Origin: a virus
Reading direction: 5' to 3' (one strand)
Length of the DNA: 64,000 bases
Virus genome (UHGV): UHGV-0279745
Shown: one piece after another, positions 34,931 to 52,832 of the stretch
How the letters are laid out: each line of letters opens with the position of its first letter
Position numbering within the stretch: position 1 is the stretch's first letter
Notes under the pieces: generated by a model
The model's input: only the letters and a program-made list of their open reading frames with translations
Told to the model about the DNA's origin: nothing
Databases searched by the model: none
Program-made: the position numbers and the translations under genes

Positions 34931-35491
34931 ATGTTTGAGCACGATAGTCCTGAATTTAATGTTGCTGTAGAGCGCATTAAATCCTACATGTCGATTTTAT
35001 CGAAAAACCCAATCGACACACACGATGACGAGGTTATTCACAAAACACTGGAAGCCGCCGCCGTTATTTTACCGTACTTTCGTCTGATGGCTGCGGATTC
35101 TTTGCAGCAAGTATTATATGACGAATATCCGCAGGTCGGATTTACCTTTAATACGTTTTATAACGAAAGTGTAGATTTCTTGCTGGATGGTAAGCGACGT
35201 AATGTGACGTTAGGGCAGTGGTCGACTTTGCTGTCGTCGTATATGAACGATGTTCGTAACACGAAGAATGTTGAACAGACGGGTGCATTAGGCTCGCGTC
35301 TATTAGCTGCTGCGTTTGGTCGCCGAGGTACTGTACGTAATATGGGCTCTGCTCACCAATCCGTTGAGTGTAGCAAACGTCTTTTATCTTATGCAGACCA
35401 TGAACTGCTGGCACGCTGGATGACGCGCCCGAACGGGTTGTCCGACATGATCTCGTCGTTAGCAGTGTTTTTGAAAATCGCACGTCCCTAA
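34931..35491 (+). CDS. hypothetical protein
   Basis: 186-aa ORF with RBS AGGAGAGG. Confidence 0.55.
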   Translation: MFEHDSPEFNVAVERIKSYMSILSKNPIDTHDDEVIHKTLEAAAVILPYFRLMAADSLQQVLYDEYPQVGFTFNTFYNESVDFLLDGKRRNVTLGQWSTLLSSYMNDVRNTKNVEQTGALGSRLLAAAFGRRGTVRNMGSAHQSVECSKRLLSYADHELLARWMTRPNGLSDMISSLAVFLKIARP

Positions 35492-35550
35492 GGGGGCCCC
35501 TCATTCTAGGGGCGTGTAATTGGGTTATATAACCAAAGGAAATAAACGAA

Positions 35551-36822
35551 ATGGCAAATTTCGCAAAAACTCGCGCCGCTCGTGAATCGATGGAAGCGGC
35601 CGATGAAGTAATCGACGGTATCAGCAACGTTGAACCGGCAGAAGAGAACCTGGACGTCCAACTTGCGGACGTAGCATCTATCGACGGTCAGCTCGATCAG
35701 CTGGAAACCGACGGTGAAACCCTGGCTGCCGATACCGAGCGTACTGAAGACGCTATCGAACAGGCGGAAGAAGCCGTTGCTAACGGTGAAGAAATGCCGG
35801 AAGAAGCGGTTGCCCTGCACGAAGTGGCACAGGAATCCATCGCACGTCGTTGGTGCCTGGAACGTACTAAGCTGGCTCGCGAATCCTATCGTCGTGGCCG
35901 TGGTATGACTGCTGCTGCCCAGGAAGGTTGGAAAGAAACCCTGAAAGATCTTTACGATCGTTTCATTCAGTTCTGTAAAGAAGTGATTGCGAAGATCAAA
36001 GACCTGAAACTGAAATATTTCAACGTCGGTAAGACCGCACAGAAACGTGCGAAGAAATATCAGGAAATGCTGCGTAAGCTGGGCAAACAGAAGAAAGATG
36101 AGATCTCTGGTGGCTTTATCACCAAGCTGTCTATCGAAGGTAAATTCGATGCTGCTGGCTCTATCGCTATTGCGAAAGAAGTTACCGCAGGTAAAGCTAA
36201 AGGTTCCATCGCTGTTCTGGAAAAACAAGCTGGTGAAGCTGTGACTGCCGTTACCAAAGGTGACGATGACGCATTCAAGGCAATGCGTGGTGATCAGCCG
36301 GTAGAACTGTTTGGTAAAGCTGCTTCTAAACTGCACACTCTGCCGAACTTTGAAAAAGGTGATGCGTCTAAACTGCTGGCTCTGCCGGGCAACGCTTACA
36401 TTCAGGCTGGTACTAAAGAACTGGCTGGCGGCCACAAGTTCACCGCAATTGCTTTCATGAGCACCGGTGACGCTTCTGACGATAAAGACGTGAAAACTCC
36501 GTCTGTTTCTGAAATGGCTGGTGCTGCTTCTGCTCTGGAAGCGATCGGTAAAGGTTTCGAAGCCGTACTGAAAGATTTCCGTGCTTACGATTCTGAAATC
36601 GTGAAGCTGCAACAGGCTGCTGAGAATGCTGCTAAGGCGCTGAACAACGAAAAAGACGATAGCAAGTGGGATGGCCTGCGTAACGCACGTCAAGCTGCCG
36701 ATTGGTCTGTTAAGAACTACCAGACCCTGAACCGCGCAGTTAGCTATGTTGCTAACACCGTTATTAGCGGTCTGAATGGCTACCTGGGTGCTGGTATCGG
36801 TGCTTACGAAAAATCTAAATAA
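35551..36822 (+). CDS. abundant acidic protein, tandem paralog A (virion/inner-body-like candidate)
   Basis: 423 aa with strongly optimised codons; shares an MANF-K-ARESME N-terminus, a central RKLGKQKKDEISGGFI block and a GLNGYL-AGIGAYEKSK C-terminus with 36905-38170. Confidence 0.7.
   Translation: MANFAKTRAARESMEAADEVIDGISNVEPAEENLDVQLADVASIDGQLDQLETDGETLAADTERTEDAIEQAEEAVANGEEMPEEAVALHEVAQESIARRWCLERTKLARESYRRGRGMTAAAQEGWKETLKDLYDRFIQFCKEVIAKIKDLKLKYFNVGKTAQKRAKKYQEMLRKLGKQKKDEISGGFITKLSIEGKFDAAGSIAIAKEVTAGKAKGSIAVLEKQAGEAVTAVTKGDDDAFKAMRGDQPVELFGKAASKLHTLPNFEKGDASKLLALPGNAYIQAGTKELAGGHKFTAIAFMSTGDASDDKDVKTPSVSEMAGAASALEAIGKGFEAVLKDFRAYDSEIVKLQQAAENAAKALNNEKDDSKWDGLRNARQAADWSVKNYQTLNRAVSYVANTVISGLNGYLGAGIGAYEKSK
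36082..36121 (+). repeat. 40-bp perfect direct repeat, copy 1 (shared with 37478-37517)
   Basis: GGCAAACAGAAGAAAGATGAGATCTCTGGTGGCTTTATCA is identical in both paralogs. Confidence 0.8.
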
Positions 36823-36904
36823 TCATTTAGATTCGTAGTTCCGTACAGTTCTTGAAATAAATCATCAGGGGAACAATACGTTCCCCTTAGAGGAAAAGCT
36901 TAAA

Positions 36905-38170
36905 ATGGCGAATTTCTACAAAAACAAAATTGCTCGTGAGTCTATGGAGTCTACTTCTACTGTAGTTCCAGACGGCATCGAACTGCCAGCAGAATCCGTA
37001 GAAGGCACTCTGGCCGATATCGAGCATGACACCAAACCGATCGAAGCTCTGGACGCTGACGCTGAACTGCTGGCAGAAGACGGCGACGAAACTGACGCTC
37101 AGCTGGATGTTCTGGATGAAGCTCAGGCTGCTGCTGACGGTGAAGGTGCTGGCGAAGACGGTGAAGAACCGATGGACGCCGAAGAAGATATGCCGGACGA
37201 CGCTGCGACTGCGCTGGACGTTGCTCAGGAATCTATCCGTTCTCGTTGGAACTTCGAACACCGTTCTTCTGTTGCTCACGAATCCTACGGTTCTCGTAAC
37301 CGTCGTCAGGTTGCTCGTGAATCCCTGTGGGAAGACATCAAAGCCTTCCTGGGCCGTATTCTCGATTGGCTGAAAGAACAAGGCCGCAAACTGAAAGATC
37401 GCTGGCTGAAATTCCACAACCAGGGTAAATCTATTCAGGCGCGTGCTAAGAAATACGATGAAGTTATTCGTAAGCTTGGCAAACAGAAGAAAGATGAGAT
37501 CTCTGGTGGCTTTATCAAGTCTCTGTCTATCGACGGCAAGTTCGTCGGCGATAATATTCCGAAACTGAAAGGTATCCTTAACCAGGTCTCCTCGTTCTAT
37601 AGCGCTAAGATGCCTGCCATGGCCGCTAAAGCTGCTGAAGTGGTTTCCGATGTTACCAAAGGTAATGGTGTTAAAGTTGAAAAACTGAAAGCCGACTTTA
37701 CCGAACTGTCCAAACAAGACAGTCTCCAAAACTTCAAGCTCGGTAACATGGCGGTGAAAACCGAGTATGACAACGAAGGCGGCTTCAGCTCCACCTTTGT
37801 TGAAGCTGAAAACAGCGTTGAAACTAGCGTGAAAACTCCGTCTGTTGGCGAACTGGCCAAAATCAATGCTCTCTTCAACGAAGTGGGTAAACAGATTGAG
37901 AAAAACGTTCAGGATTATCGTAAAGTCGAAAGCGCGCGTAAAACCTTTGAAGATAATATCGATAAGCTCCTGAAAGAAGTCGATAAAGTTAAGATCGACG
38001 AAAAACCGGAACTGACCGAAGGTGTACGTGCTGCCCGTCGTTTCATCACCAGCGTTAACCAGGGTCTGTCTCTGGGTGAGAAGGTTATTGCTTCTACTCA
38101 GAAACACCTGGCCGGTGGTCTGAACGGTTACCTGAGTGCCGGTATCGGCGCTTACGAAAAATCTAAATAA
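36905..38170 (+). CDS. abundant acidic protein, tandem paralog B
   Basis: 421 aa; paralog of 35551-36822; optimised codons; followed by a strong terminator. Confidence 0.7.
   Translation: MANFYKNKIARESMESTSTVVPDGIELPAESVEGTLADIEHDTKPIEALDADAELLAEDGDETDAQLDVLDEAQAAADGEGAGEDGEEPMDAEEDMPDDAATALDVAQESIRSRWNFEHRSSVAHESYGSRNRRQVARESLWEDIKAFLGRILDWLKEQGRKLKDRWLKFHNQGKSIQARAKKYDEVIRKLGKQKKDEISGGFIKSLSIDGKFVGDNIPKLKGILNQVSSFYSAKMPAMAAKAAEVVSDVTKGNGVKVEKLKADFTELSKQDSLQNFKLGNMAVKTEYDNEGGFSSTFVEAENSVETSVKTPSVGELAKINALFNEVGKQIEKNVQDYRKVESARKTFEDNIDKLLKEVDKVKIDEKPELTEGVRAARRFITSVNQGLSLGEKVIASTQKHLAGGLNGYLSAGIGAYEKSK
37478..37517 (+). repeat. 40-bp perfect direct repeat, copy 2
   Basis: Identical to 36082-36121. 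Confidence 0.8.
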
Positions 38171-38186
38171 TCCCTGATTGTTTAGT

Positions 38187-38235
38187 AAGAGAACCACCCT
38201 GTAATGGGGTGGTTCTCTCTTTTCTTTTTTTTTTC
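38187..38235 (+). terminator. rho-independent terminator
   Basis: Stem AGAGAACCACCC / GGGTGGTTCTCT followed by a 16-nt T-run. Confidence 0.7.
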
Positions 38236-38247
38236 GATTAAAATAAT

Positions 38248-38289
38248 TTTCAGATATATATTACCTAGGTGAGATTACACAGTAATCTC
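38248..38289 (+). promoter_or_regulatory. candidate phage promoter (TATATTAC core) plus downstream inverted repeat
   Basis: 27-nt element TTTCAGATATATATTACCTAGGTGAGA is identical to 46505-46531; TATATTAC at 38257-38264; perfect inverted repeat GAGATTAC-aca-GTAATCTC at 38271-38289; about 68 nt upstream of ATG 38325. Confidence 0.5.
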
Positions 38290-38324
38290 TTTACGACTTG
38301 TTTATTACGTTTAGGAGAAATATC

Positions 38325-38966
38325 ATGAGCCGCATTAATTTAACTGATTTTGTTGATGGTGTTGTGTCTACGGATAAAGGTGTTGTTACGATGGTGGCAC
38401 CGAATAGTAAAGTTGTTACTTTAAATCCGGTAGAACTGATTTCTATTTCTACCTGGTTGCGCTTACTTTCTGGTAAGAAACCTAAAGACCAAGCGAAGGG
38501 TGGCTTATTAGTTGGTACACGTGAGTTTGTTTTCAAAGACATAACCCAAGATAAACTGGACAGCATTGCTAAAGAACTGAACGGCAAGCATAAAACTCGT
38601 GACATCGGGTGTGCCGAATATGACGGAGTAACGTACCATGCGTTTCTTGATAGTCACGTAGCATTGCGTGAAAAAGAAAATGGGATGTACGATTCAGTTT
38701 GTTTCTTTCACTTAATCGCACCAACAGAAAACGAAGCTGTGTATGAAACCGTTGAAAAATCGGCGGAAGCTGTTATGGAAACGGTGTCAGAACTTATAGA
38801 AGGGATGAAAAGAATCCCACGTGTGTTGAAAGTTACTGATGGGGCTTTCGATTGTTTTAAATTATTACCCCTAATAGCTAGTAAAGAATACGAAGATGAG
38901 AACACCTTCGGACTATTCGAAATTAGTCTTTCGGAAGCAGTTGTTACTTTCTTTGAAGATTTATGA
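38325..38966 (+). CDS. hypothetical protein
   Basis: Start at ATG 38325 with RBS AGGAG; first gene downstream of the promoter-like element. Confidence 0.6.
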   Translation: MSRINLTDFVDGVVSTDKGVVTMVAPNSKVVTLNPVELISISTWLRLLSGKKPKDQAKGGLLVGTREFVFKDITQDKLDSIAKELNGKHKTRDIGCAEYDGVTYHAFLDSHVALREKENGMYDSVCFFHLIAPTENEAVYETVEKSAEAVMETVSELIEGMKRIPRVLKVTDGAFDCFKLLPLIASKEYEDENTFGLFEISLSEAVVTFFEDL

Positions 38967-46504: not shown

Positions 46505-46546
46505 TTTCAGATATATATTACCTAGGTGAGAGTTTACGTAATACTC
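46505..46546 (+). promoter_or_regulatory. candidate phage promoter (TATATTAC core), second copy
   Basis: Same 27-nt element as 38248-38274; TATATTAC at 46514-46521; imperfect inverted repeat downstream; about 64 nt upstream of ATG 46578. Confidence 0.5.
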
Positions 46547-50537: not shown

Positions 50538-52832
50538 ATGAAAGATACCCGAATCTCTAATCTGGAGAAACTCGTACAAGCTGGTAACTCGCTGGTACAA
50601 AGCGTCATTAGTAACAACAGTGCTGGCGAAATGTGGAACACCATCGTTGCTGGTGAGTCTGTACGTAGCAACACGAAAGTTTTTGGTACCCTGCGTGACG
50701 ATGCTGCACAGCACTACGCAAACGCGTTTGCTGGCGGTAAGAAAATGTCCCACGCTGCGGAAGTTGCTTCTGCAATGATTCTGGGTGCTGCTGGTCACGG
50801 TATGGACCTGCAAGAAAAAGTAGCGCAAGAATACGCTAAGCCAGAATTCCATAGCCGTTTTAACCTGGACGTTGCGATTCCTGGTTCCCAAGCTGGTAAC
50901 GGCGACTGGGGCAAAGAGCGTATGGTTGTTGCTCAGGAATACTACACCAACAAAGATTACGACAAAAACCTGGGTCTGACCTGGACGCTGAACGTACGTG
51001 CTCTGGAAACTCAGTCTCGTTTTGCTGAGACTCTGTTCCCGACCATCACCGTTGACACCAACGATGTTGGTATTACCGTACGTACCAAAGTGACCACCGT
51101 TTCTCGTGGTGTCATGCACGCGTTACTGACCAAAGACGTTGTTGAAGATCATCGTCGTAACCTGCACGAAGCGCTGACTGACCACACCGTTCTTCAGGAC
51201 GAAGCGATCAACATCGTTCCTTACGTAATGGAAACCGGTGAAAACGCTGAATACTTCGTAAGCGAAGAACTGGTACCGAACGAATCTGTTCGCCTGGGTC
51301 GTGTACCTCCGTACCCGACTAACTACCTGAGCTTTGCTAAAGACACTCTGAACCTGTTCCAGCTGTCTGCGCATCCGGGTATCGTTCAGGAAGGTTACGA
51401 CGAAACTGATGAAATCGCACCGGGTTGTGCTCTGGGCAGCCTGCTGATTTCCGTACGTAAACCGACCGAAGAAGCGAAAGCAGGTAAATTCATCAAACTG
51501 CACGTTCGTGACATGCAGTTCGCAACCTTCCAGCGTCCTGCTGAAGGTGATGGCCGTGAGCTGGTACTGCAATTCCGTCGTACTGCGTTCTCTCTGAATG
51601 CGAAAACCACCGACTGGAAAGGCGAAGCTATTCCGGCACTGAAATCACTGGAACAGAACTCCTACACCCTGCGTTATGTGATCACCATCAACATGTCTCT
51701 GTTCACTACCGGTCAGTTCGGTGGTAAAGTTGACATCGCTGGTCACAAACTGGAAATCGAAGGTCTGTACGACGCTACCGGTAACAAAGTTGATACCAAA
51801 TCTGGTACCGGCAAAGTTATCCTGGACGGTCTGAAACTTGAACTGATGGGCTGGCGCTTCGATGGTACTCGTACCAACGAAAACCGTCGTACCCAGGGTC
51901 TGCTGCTTGACCCAATCTGGGAACAAGAAAACTACAAACTGCAATACGGTTCTCCGATCCTGACCAAGTCTCCGGTTGGCGTTGAATACGACGATACCGA
52001 ACGTCTGGACGACCTGATTTCCGCAGTTAACATCCGTAACGAACAGCTGGCTATCACTCAGACGCTGTCTTACACCGAAGCGGTACGTAACGCTGCTGCA
52101 AGCATGATCACTCCGTGGGACAAACCGGCCATTCGTGGTCTGGGCCGTCACTGGGTTGCTCCGTGGTTCAAAGAGTCTGACTACAACGTTGATGAAGTTG
52201 TACAGTCCCTGGATACCAAAGATGCACTGATCAACGCTCGTCAGGGCCTGGTACAGCGTATCGGTAATCAGGTAACTCAGGCTATCCAGGAATCTCGCTT
52301 CATTCCTGCGCTGCGTCTGTACACTGCCGATCCGGACATTCTGCCGAAAGTTGTTATTGCAACTGACGAACCGACTGCATCTATGCTGCTGCTGGTACAG
52401 GGCGACCAACGTCTGCTGGGCGATCGCTACGAATACGAAGTGATCACCACCAACGATGACCGCTGGCGTATCTACAACGCAGCTGACGGTTCCTGGACTC
52501 GTCGTCTGCAATGGTTCCTGAAAGTTCCGACTGCGGACGATGGTTCCTACAACGTGCTGAACTGGGGTAACCACTTCTGGTCTCCGATCATGGTTACCAA
52601 CATCAACATTCAGCGTAACGGTTCTACCTCTAAAGAGCTGGCTGTACAGCCGCGCAACGCGCACATCTGCCACTGCCCGATCACTGGTCTGATCTGGGTT
52701 AAAGGCATCACCAAACTGGTTGAAGAAAAACTGGCTTACAATGTTTCTGTTGAACAGAACGGTCAGAAACAAACCGAAGGTGGTGTAGCAGGTAACGTTG
52801 CTGGCGAAGGCAAAGCTGCTGCTGGTAAGTAA
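50538..52832 (+). CDS. very highly expressed structural protein candidate (major capsid or tail sheath; identity unresolved)
   Basis: 764 aa; extreme preferred-codon usage (ctg, cgt, ggt, aac, gaa) producing long stop-free antisense frames; RBS AAGG; followed by a strong terminator. Confidence 0.8.
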   Translation: MKDTRISNLEKLVQAGNSLVQSVISNNSAGEMWNTIVAGESVRSNTKVFGTLRDDAAQHYANAFAGGKKMSHAAEVASAMILGAAGHGMDLQEKVAQEYAKPEFHSRFNLDVAIPGSQAGNGDWGKERMVVAQEYYTNKDYDKNLGLTWTLNVRALETQSRFAETLFPTITVDTNDVGITVRTKVTTVSRGVMHALLTKDVVEDHRRNLHEALTDHTVLQDEAINIVPYVMETGENAEYFVSEELVPNESVRLGRVPPYPTNYLSFAKDTLNLFQLSAHPGIVQEGYDETDEIAPGCALGSLLISVRKPTEEAKAGKFIKLHVRDMQFATFQRPAEGDGRELVLQFRRTAFSLNAKTTDWKGEAIPALKSLEQNSYTLRYVITINMSLFTTGQFGGKVDIAGHKLEIEGLYDATGNKVDTKSGTGKVILDGLKLELMGWRFDGTRTNENRRTQGLLLDPIWEQENYKLQYGSPILTKSPVGVEYDDTERLDDLISAVNIRNEQLAITQTLSYTEAVRNAAASMITPWDKPAIRGLGRHWVAPWFKESDYNVDEVVQSLDTKDALINARQGLVQRIGNQVTQAIQESRFIPALRLYTADPDILPKVVIATDEPTASMLLLVQGDQRLLGDRYEYEVITTNDDRWRIYNAADGSWTRRLQWFLKVPTADDGSYNVLNWGNHFWSPIMVTNINIQRNGSTSKELAVQPRNAHICHCPITGLIWVKGITKLVEEKLAYNVSVEQNGQKQTEGGVAGNVAGEGKAAAGK

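Follow-up and report, generated by a model that had tools for sequence, protein, structure and literature searches.

Predicted internal head protein genes of an SPN3US-like jumbo phage: evidence for short-tract gene conversion between tandem paralogs and a conserved hairpin between them

In the head of the Salmonella jumbo phage SPN3US, no internal proteins are more abundant than the products of the tandem genes gp53 and gp54 ('paralog family A'), which occur in more than 600 copies each and are classed as ejection proteins; with gp75 they are the three most abundant proteins of the head, and their spectral counts (662 for gp53 and 643 for gp54) are nearly equimolar. Their entry into proheads depends on gp243, and the prohead protease gp245 cuts them after the motif A-x-E, the mapped sites being ARE-12, AQE-95 and AQE-125 in gp53 and AQE-124 and ARE-137 in gp54, with GWKETLKDLFER and SLWDDIK as the respective mature N-termini. 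Both belong to the Pfam family PF12699 (phiKZ_IP), as do gp92-97, gp162 and gp163 of phiKZ and gp53-gp58 of Goslar. The present study concerns a corresponding pair of genes in the UHGV virus genome UHGV-0279745, of which a stretch of 64,000 nucleotides (nt), called here the window, was analysed. According to its list of open reading frames (ORFs), gene A (35551-36822, + strand) encodes 423 amino acids and gene B (36905-38170, + strand), which starts 82 nt further on, encodes 421. The two genes share an identical segment of 40 nt, which we propose to be the footprint of a recent gene conversion, and they are separated by a conserved hairpin.

We consider it very probable that A and B form a two-gene late unit encoding the major internal head (ejection) proteins of an uncultured SPN3US-like jumbo phage (about 224 kb) of Enterobacteriaceae. 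The product of gene A matches PF12699 with 243.1 bits (residues 44-414, expectation value (E) 7.6e-72) and that of gene B with 195 bits (residues 42-411, E 3.1e-57), the curated gathering score being 27 bits, and the two matches span positions 2-387 of the 387 positions of the profile, so that both proteins are full-length members. They also match phrog_2497, 'internal head protein', with E 1.4e-147 and 9.2e-120. Gene A encodes a protein 68% identical to SPN3US gp53 and 73% identical to Asesino gp70, and the window has about 75% nucleotide identity to the Erwinia phages Asesino, Stratton and phiEaH2 and to Salmonella SPN3US-like phages. The A-then-B order with the same neighbours was found in all of the 15 genomes extracted (the window phage and 14 relatives), which span Seoulvirus, Erskinevirus, Machinavirus, Wellingtonvirus and Derbicusvirus; in SPN3US as in the window, a PhiKZ_gp91-like gene precedes the pair, and small ORFs and a DHFR gene follow it. 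In a tblastn search (threshold 1e-5), among the best 60 of 64 matching phage records, the 58 enterobacterial ones show two loci each and two Vibrio phages show one. A sequence search of the PDB found no relative. Genes A and B are new members of a well-known family, orthologs of SPN3US gp53 and gp54 respectively, and no new kind of protein; for annotation they are best labelled as internal head (ejection) proteins, gp53-like with a predicted propeptide of 125 residues and gp54-like with one of 139.

The original prediction, made from the letters alone, had described two adjacent genes of about 420 codons with N-terminal, central and C-terminal blocks in common, and both ORFs are indeed present as tandem paralogs with 35% protein identity (BLASTP, E 1e-55). 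Their likeness clusters in the N-terminal 15 codons, in AQESI..RW, in a central block around RKLGKQKKDEISGGFI, in VKTPSV and in the C-terminal GLNGYL.AGIGAYEKSK, and the N-terminal M(A)NF...ARES motif is confined, among the ORFs of the window, to these two proteins. The homolog search and family alignment which that prediction had proposed as a check gave PF12699, phrog_2497 and the syntenic gp53/gp54 orthologs, and in an alignment of 30 sequences the A-type and B-type proteins split into clean ortholog sets outside the conversion patches. The duplication is therefore older than the clade, which accounts for the present identity of only 35%. The same evidence sustains the idea that the pair belongs to a phiKZ-like paralog family of abundant proteins of virion or inner-body type, the presence of A and B in the virion being suggested by orthology and codon bias.

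The arrangement of the protease motifs follows that of SPN3US. The window A protein has ARE-12, AQE-95, ARE-111 and AQE-125 (followed by GWKETLKDLYDR), and window B has ARE-12, AQE-109, AHE-126 and ARE-139 (followed by SLWEDIK), the second site of B being AHE-126 where SPN3US gp54 has AQE-124; the A-x-E columns are kept in at least 12 of the 15 genomes in each ortholog set. The predicted mature N-terminus of A, after AQE-125, begins GWKETLK. Cleavage at these sites would part an acidic propeptide, covering codons 1-125 of A (35551-35925; isoelectric point (pI) 4.2, net charge -19) and codons 1-139 of B (36905-37321; pI 4.1, net charge -27), from a basic mature domain of 298 residues in A (codons 126-423; pI 9.3, net charge +10) and of 282 residues in B (codons 140-421; pI 9.4, net charge +11). 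The acidic N-terminal halves of the original prediction are thus acidic N-terminal thirds. The predicted mature masses, 32.1 and 31.3 kDa, compare with 31.5 and 30.3 kDa in SPN3US, so that, at the level of motif conservation, the mapped positions and a mature protein of about 31 kDa are both recovered. The lengths of the two proteins, their predicted mature N-termini and the combination of an acidic propeptide with a basic mature part are shared with gp53 and gp54.

Both genes are strongly biased in codon usage, as had been predicted. The effective number of codons (Nc) is 31.4 for A and 35.7 for B, with 1-2% rare codons, and among the 43 ORFs considered in the window the sole comparable one is 50538-52832 (Nc 32.2), the major head protein (phrog_3231), the 40 others having an Nc of at least 40. 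A bias equal to that of the major capsid gene fits SPN3US, where gp75, gp53 and gp54 are the top three head proteins. Within the window phage, this bias is the sole indirect indication of the high virion copy number and of the ejection which the analogy with SPN3US would imply.

A structural model obtained with AlphaFold2 from an alignment of A and B only reached a predicted local distance difference test (pLDDT) score of 46.7 and was discarded; rebuilt with 57 homologs, the model of the gene A protein reached a pLDDT of 81.3 and a predicted template-modelling score of 0.80. The model consists of long helices (34-77, 84-100, 119-175, 201-236, 319-366 and 371-417) and a small beta subdomain (275-315). 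A Foldseek search against viral models gave 98 matches with E <= 0.001, among which 201phi2-1, PhiPA3, Psa21, Noxifer, Ea35-70 and Ralstonia jumbo phages are represented by internal-head or virion proteins. The fold was placed by searches of both viral models and the PDB, with generic helical bundles further down; the predicted helix-rich fold is one common to jumbo-phage internal head and virion proteins. The phiKZ and Goslar members of the family have a high virion copy number, an N-terminal cut after Glu by an S80-type head protease, injection and local paralog clusters, traits which the window proteins would share. They differ from the window pair in showing no BLAST-level similarity to it (among the matches listed, tblastn at 1e-5 found enterobacterial and Vibrio phages only) and in number, since the window has two paralogs and phiKZ has five to eight and Goslar six. 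Moreover, unlike in phiKZ, no inner body has been seen in SPN3US-like phages, in whose protease-deficient capsids the proteins are arranged as a T=1 inner shell. In phiKZ gp93 and gp162, N-terminal segments bind between capsomers and the helix-rich domains are freed by proteolysis; by analogy, part of the A/B propeptide may anchor the protein to the prohead wall. The internal proteins IPI, IPII and IPIII of phage T4, with their capsid-targeting sequence, are a functional analogy only. They are basic and injected with the DNA, and their propeptide has about 10 residues; no sequence or fold relationship to A and B was found, and the window differs in having propeptides of 125-139 residues with several cleavage sites and in copy numbers that would be much higher.

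Extending what is described for SPN3US, phiKZ and Goslar, A and B would be produced at capsid-protein levels and loaded into the prohead, where the prohead protease would cleave after A-x-E in the acidic propeptides (125 amino acids in A and 139 in B), including after residue 12. This cleavage would release a mature domain that is basic, mostly alpha-helical and about 31 kDa in mass, and hundreds of copies of it would be kept in the DNA-filled head and injected with the genome.

The conserved centre of the two genes carries the 40-mer, GGCAAACAGAAGAAAGATGAGATCTCTGGTGGCTTTATCA, which is identical, exactly as the original prediction had it, at 36082-36121 in A and 37478-37517 in B, in frame in both genes and mismatched on both flanks. 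It sits in a 139-nt A/B stretch of 76% identity and, in the AlphaFold2 model, the 13-residue block that it encodes (178-190) lies in a beta/turn segment right after helix 119-175. The copy in gene B, the donor sequence, encodes GKQKKDEISGGFI, and so does the block in every B gene checked, namely those of the window, of 13 strain contigs, of strain L005 and of the sister strains L030-L035. At this place gene A of the sister strains encodes GKQDKDNISGGFI (L030-L033) or GKQEKDKVSGGFI (L034 and L035); residues K181 and E184 of window A are B-type, the sister A genes having D/E and N/K there. Informative sites were taken as those at which both outgroup A genes (L030-L035) agree and differ from B, and there window A has the A state as far as gene position 522, the B state at 541, 549, 550 and 555, and the A state again from 572. 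Such an A-like/B-like/A-like pattern implies a tract copied from B to A, of 15-49 nt, whose bounds lie at gene A positions 523-541 and 555-571 (at most 36073-36121 and at least 36091-36105, + strand). Over the 13 codons of the block, A and B of the window show no difference, those of the other 14 genomes differ from each other by 7-16 nt, and 210 cross-genome A/B comparisons give 3-20 differences (median 12); no ortholog comes closer than 5-6 nt to either window copy, and each copy is thus nearer to its paralog. A bounded tract, paralogs closer than orthologs, diverged flanks and a direction given by the outgroup are all found here, and they support the proposal, made as one of two in the original prediction, of a recent gene conversion, at strain level and from B to A. 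On this evidence, short-tract interlocus conversion occasionally overwrites the conserved A/B blocks; in the lineage of the window, a patch of B of at most 49 nt has replaced the homologous patch of A, creating the 40-mer and changing two or three residues of A.

The variation among close strains was followed in 13 distinct contigs (metagenome or isolate, window included), which were chosen because they encode exactly the A or the B protein of the window; those compared directly (L002-L004 and L006) have 98.6-99% DNA identity to it. The 40-mer is present in both genes in four of them (the window, L027, L028 and L029), and in the nine others the longest A/B match is 21-29 nt, with 1-4 synonymous differences between the copies. 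The 21 segregating sites of gene B are all synonymous and five fall in the block, where they form the densest cluster of single-nucleotide polymorphisms (SNPs) in the gene; all three polymorphisms of the gene A block are at sites homologous to B polymorphisms and have the same alleles, three of the four polymorphisms common to A and B being in the block. An assembly artefact as the source of the 40-mer was ruled out, as the double copy is also present in L027 and L029, at a distance from the window of 9 SNPs in gene A and 8 in gene B.

A second and opposite exchange is seen at the 5' end of the genes. Over its first 38-47 nt, gene B of L030-L033 is identical to A (MANFAKTRAARESMEA); MANFYKNKIARESMES stands there in window B and L034 B, and the B genes of the window and of L034 and L035 differ from A at this place. 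This is an independent A-to-B conversion, in which the first 38-47 nt of A have replaced those of B in the sister lineage. Over the 15 genomes, a general excess of within-genome A/B identity is found only in the first 15 codons (0.81 vs 0.68), where the own paralog is the nearest or second-nearest paralog-type sequence in most genera, with the exception of the window phage. The first 15 residues of SPN3US gp53 and gp54 are identical, a feature likened to the T4 capsid-targeting sequence (Ali et al. 2017); in the window 11 of these 15 residues match, and the identical stretch is central. In the window another patch, 36489-36518 and 37828-37857, is common to A and B, with 19 nt exact, and encodes VKTPSV; the K of window A is B-type and occurs in no other A ortholog, the within-genome identity is above all the cross-genome comparisons, and the Erskinevirus genomes have a similar within-genome match at this block (VS.PNAS.LSS). 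The VKTPSV patch may be a second conversion tract. A two-codon insertion in the central block (K-x-K-S-G-K) is present in gene A of Erskinevirus (Asesino and phiEaH2) and in gene B of the Machinavirus-type phages Caitlin, Machina and SNUABM8, and it may represent another trace of exchange between paralogs or independent insertions. The near-identical 3' ends, which had also been read as a sign of recent conversion or of selection on the nucleotide sequence, do not have this meaning: they are 91% identical over 56 nt, and their identity is no outlier (0.84 vs a cross-genome maximum of 0.87). The pattern resembles known interlocus gene conversion in its short identical tract flanked by old divergence, in paralogs closer than orthologs, in shared polymorphisms and in the occurrence of both directions; it differs in that the tracts are very short (<= about 50 nt) and that the genes are only about 55% identical in DNA overall. 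We found no description, in the searchable literature, of DNA-level exchange between A and B or of short-tract conversion in jumbo-phage head proteins. Bidirectional short-tract conversion limited to conserved blocks is a modest new evolutionary detail.

Could the identity of the 40-mer have arisen by chance, from amino-acid conservation and an extreme codon bias acting in the absence of any DNA exchange? Both genes are strongly biased (Nc 31-36); 92 of the 136 columns with identical residues in the window pair (68%) also have identical codons, and the longest run of 16 such codons has p = 0.054 by shuffling (0.0085 by codon-usage simulation). A chance origin also fully accounts for the likeness of the 3' ends. 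However, the 13 codons differ by 7-16 nt in relatives whose amino-acid conservation is comparable, the B-type K181 and E184 of window A are derived and bordered by sharp A-like flanks, and another lineage, with its independent 5' identity of 38-47 nt, shows that exchange takes place at this locus, so that we judge this explanation improbable. Selection on the nucleotide sequence, the other proposal of the original prediction, would make the 40-mer a functional element present once per gene, for example an RNA motif, a site bound by a protein, or a signal for recombination or packaging. No exact repeat in the region is longer, the 40-mer is placed in the most conserved block of both genes, and the probability of 13 identical codons from codon usage alone, given the amino acids, is 6.7e-4. 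Nevertheless, none of the 14 related genomes has it, their own A and B matching exactly over 11-26 nt at the longest, mostly at the extreme 5' end; it is broken by synonymous SNPs in nine of the 13 strain contigs, gene A of the sister strains encodes other amino acids there, and it has no Rfam match. This possibility appears very remote, and the 40-mer has no sequence-level function of its own. A lack of conservation of the repeat in related genomes had been set in advance as a refuting outcome, and its occurrence removes the functional repeat only, the identification of the proteins being untouched.

The second feature of the unit is the intergenic hairpin AGGGGAAC-AATAC-GTTCCCCT (36867-36887, + strand; 8-bp stem, -12.8 kcal/mol), for which the original prediction was right as to its existence and its lack of a U-tract, its folded span replacing the coordinates 36866-36885. 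It stands 44 nt after the gene A stop codon and 1 nt before the Shine-Dalgarno sequence AGAGGA (36889-36894), which is invariant and 10 nt upstream of the gene B ATG. All 15 genomes have an uninterrupted stem of 7-10 bp (-12.6 to -18.7 kcal/mol) at 0-1 nt from AGAGGA, and, of 7500 upstream segments that were shuffled, only 6 give such a hairpin. Across these genomes the stem has at least nine different sequences, G-C, C-G, A-T and T-A pairs alternating at several positions, so that the hairpin is structurally conserved with compensatory changes; this comparison uses a structure-anchored table, which is fitted to the structure and descriptive, and which replaced pair counting in a MAFFT alignment where the Wellingtonvirus and Derbicusvirus stems were out of register. 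The sequence TAGAGGA occurs four times in the window, which is the chance level, and no such hairpin lies upstream of the major capsid gene, so that the module of hairpin and TAGAGGA is specific to this locus. The hairpin would probably control mRNA stability, processing or read-through/attenuation and thereby set the A:B output. That it should be specifically an attenuating terminator for the phage RNA polymerase, giving more gene A than gene B transcripts, and not a stabiliser or a processing element, is possible but rather unlikely in our view. Its G+C-rich stem just past gene A, the phiKZ terminators, most of which are G+C-rich hairpins followed only by TTAT with no long U-tract, and the slightly lower spectral counts of SPN3US gp54 (643 vs 662) are in favour of attenuation. 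Against it, in every genome [T/C]AGAGGA (TAGAGGA in the window) comes straight after the stem and there is no T-run, the clade does use U-tracts, as in the canonical hairpin and T-run after gene B, SPN3US gp53 and gp54 are near-equimolar, and the strict spacing of 0-1 nt to the ribosome-binding site suggests a link with translation or with the stability of the gene B 5' end. A terminator scan reported the hairpin on the opposite strand only, and 36867-36887 does not qualify as an intrinsic terminator. The structurally conserved hairpin beside the second gene's ribosome-binding site is a modest new point.

Several considerations weigh against the reading of the locus as a head-protein unit with a converted patch and a regulatory hairpin. 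The run-length statistic of the window pair taken alone is marginal (p = 0.054) and suggestive only, and the case for conversion rests on the comparative data; the four-gamete patterns found at most 6 bp from the block could in part reflect recurrent synonymous mutation and not repeated conversion. Virion presence, cleavage and injection are extrapolated from relatives 61-73% identical. The TTAT-tailed terminators of phiKZ make partial termination inseparable from stabilisation for the middle hairpin. Finally, the part that injected PF12699 proteins play is itself obscure, 'a key unsolved mystery' according to a 2026 Goslar preprint.

Other signals frame the unit. A conserved hairpin, CACGTCCCTA...TAGGGGCGTG (35482-35517, + strand, from folding), spans the stop codon (35489-35491) of the upstream PhiKZ_gp91-like gene and is nearly invariant in the 15 genomes; in two Wellingtonvirus genomes the change of TAA to TGA is paired with that of TAG to CAG. 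It is followed by the near-palindrome TTGGGTTATATAACCAAA (35520-35537, + strand), an inverted repeat just upstream of the gene A ribosome-binding site AGGA (35537-35540), whose core GGTTA(TA)ACC is kept in all 15 genomes and which is possibly a promoter or operator element. Gene B is followed by a canonical intrinsic terminator (38188-38236, + strand; z = -3.3), in which both a 13-bp G+C-rich stem (38188-38218) and a T-run were found, and an equivalent hairpin and T-run follow gene B in 15 of 15 genomes; the intergenic hairpin and the terminator are both conserved in SPN3US. The unit can thus be read as hairpin, A, hairpin, B, terminator. A sigma-70 promoter scan found no + strand site near A and B, as expected for a phage with its own polymerases, and the sole match of an Rfam 15 scan of 35300-38500 was sau-41, whose 24.5 bits (E 0.88) fall short of the gathering score of 80. 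The gene B terminator is immediately followed by CAGATATATATTAC at 38251-38264, with an equivalent AGATA[T/G]ATATTA at the same place in about ten relatives, and a second exact ATATATTAC occurs at 46513-46521; these sequences resemble the AT-rich early-promoter motifs of about 10 nt of jumbo phages that encode their own RNA polymerases.

Among the neighbouring ORFs, 34931-35491, which immediately precedes gene A, has a PF25618 match (phiKZ gp91, vertex-binding inner capsid protein) of 29.8 bits vs a cutoff of 27. Two antisense ORFs, 35506-36693 (- strand, 395 codons) and 36887-38197 (- strand, 436 codons), mirror A and B; we regard them as a side effect of the extreme codon bias and not as genes. 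Downstream of the terminator, the ORF 38298-38966 (G+C 0.39) has no Pfam or PHROG match and has about 47% DNA identity in strain L005, and a short ORF replaces it in L034, L035 and L036 (59 amino acids in L034 and L035). It is a hypervariable slot beside conserved head genes.

The variability extends into gene B itself. Within the species complex, the propeptide and the first 75 or so residues of mature B are 96-100% conserved, and gene A is nearly identical too, whereas the last 210 or so residues of B (37550-38170) are mosaic, with 40-73% identity (proteins P0059-P0114); L005 has 99-100% identity to the window over 35351-37350, after which the identity falls to 54-82% over the remainder of B and to about 47% in the following gene. 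For the hypervariable C-terminal part of B, diversifying selection is unsupported, the ratio of non-synonymous to synonymous divergence (dN/dS) being 0.2-0.28 with a dS of 0.8-1.5, values which point to old alleles shuffled by recombination with no detectable positive selection. Contigs of 220-227 kb with these genes come from human-associated metagenomes and from many isolate assemblies labelled Salmonella, Shigella, E. coli and Enterobacter. In two complete genomes, of E. coli 98232 (NZ_CP173450.1, L036) and Enterobacter ludwigii (NZ_CP134650.1), a relative with 91% nucleotide identity is listed as a circular 'plasmid' of about 222 kb, which suggests a carrier state, pseudolysogeny or phage DNA sequenced along with the isolate.

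In conclusion, our observations draw attention to exchange between two paralogs of a family, PF12699, whose members rank with the most abundant components of jumbo-phage heads and accompany the DNA on injection. The patches, no longer than about 50 nt and swapped in both directions in different lineages, point to segments that need to stay matched. We tentatively suggest, as a speculation that we regard as unlikely, that the like blocks of A and B (the N-terminal dodecapeptide ending at ARE-12, the basic block GKQKKDEISGGFI, which begins some 55 residues after the start of the mature domain, and VKTPS) are docking modules for one shared partner, that conversion keeps these modules co-evolving, and that the hairpin at the ribosome-binding site fixes the gp53:gp54 ratio at the RNA level. 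The partner could be a gp243-like incorporation factor, the inner capsid surface or an A/B hetero-oligomer. On the practical side, the occurrence of conversion in these blocks means that phylogenies, primers or probes sited there can mislead. The hairpin at the ribosome-binding site of the second gene, present in five genera, is a candidate for RNA-level control of late-gene stoichiometry in phages with their own RNA polymerases. And if the docking reading were true, the positions of the conversion tracts would map functional interfaces in a family of mysterious role.

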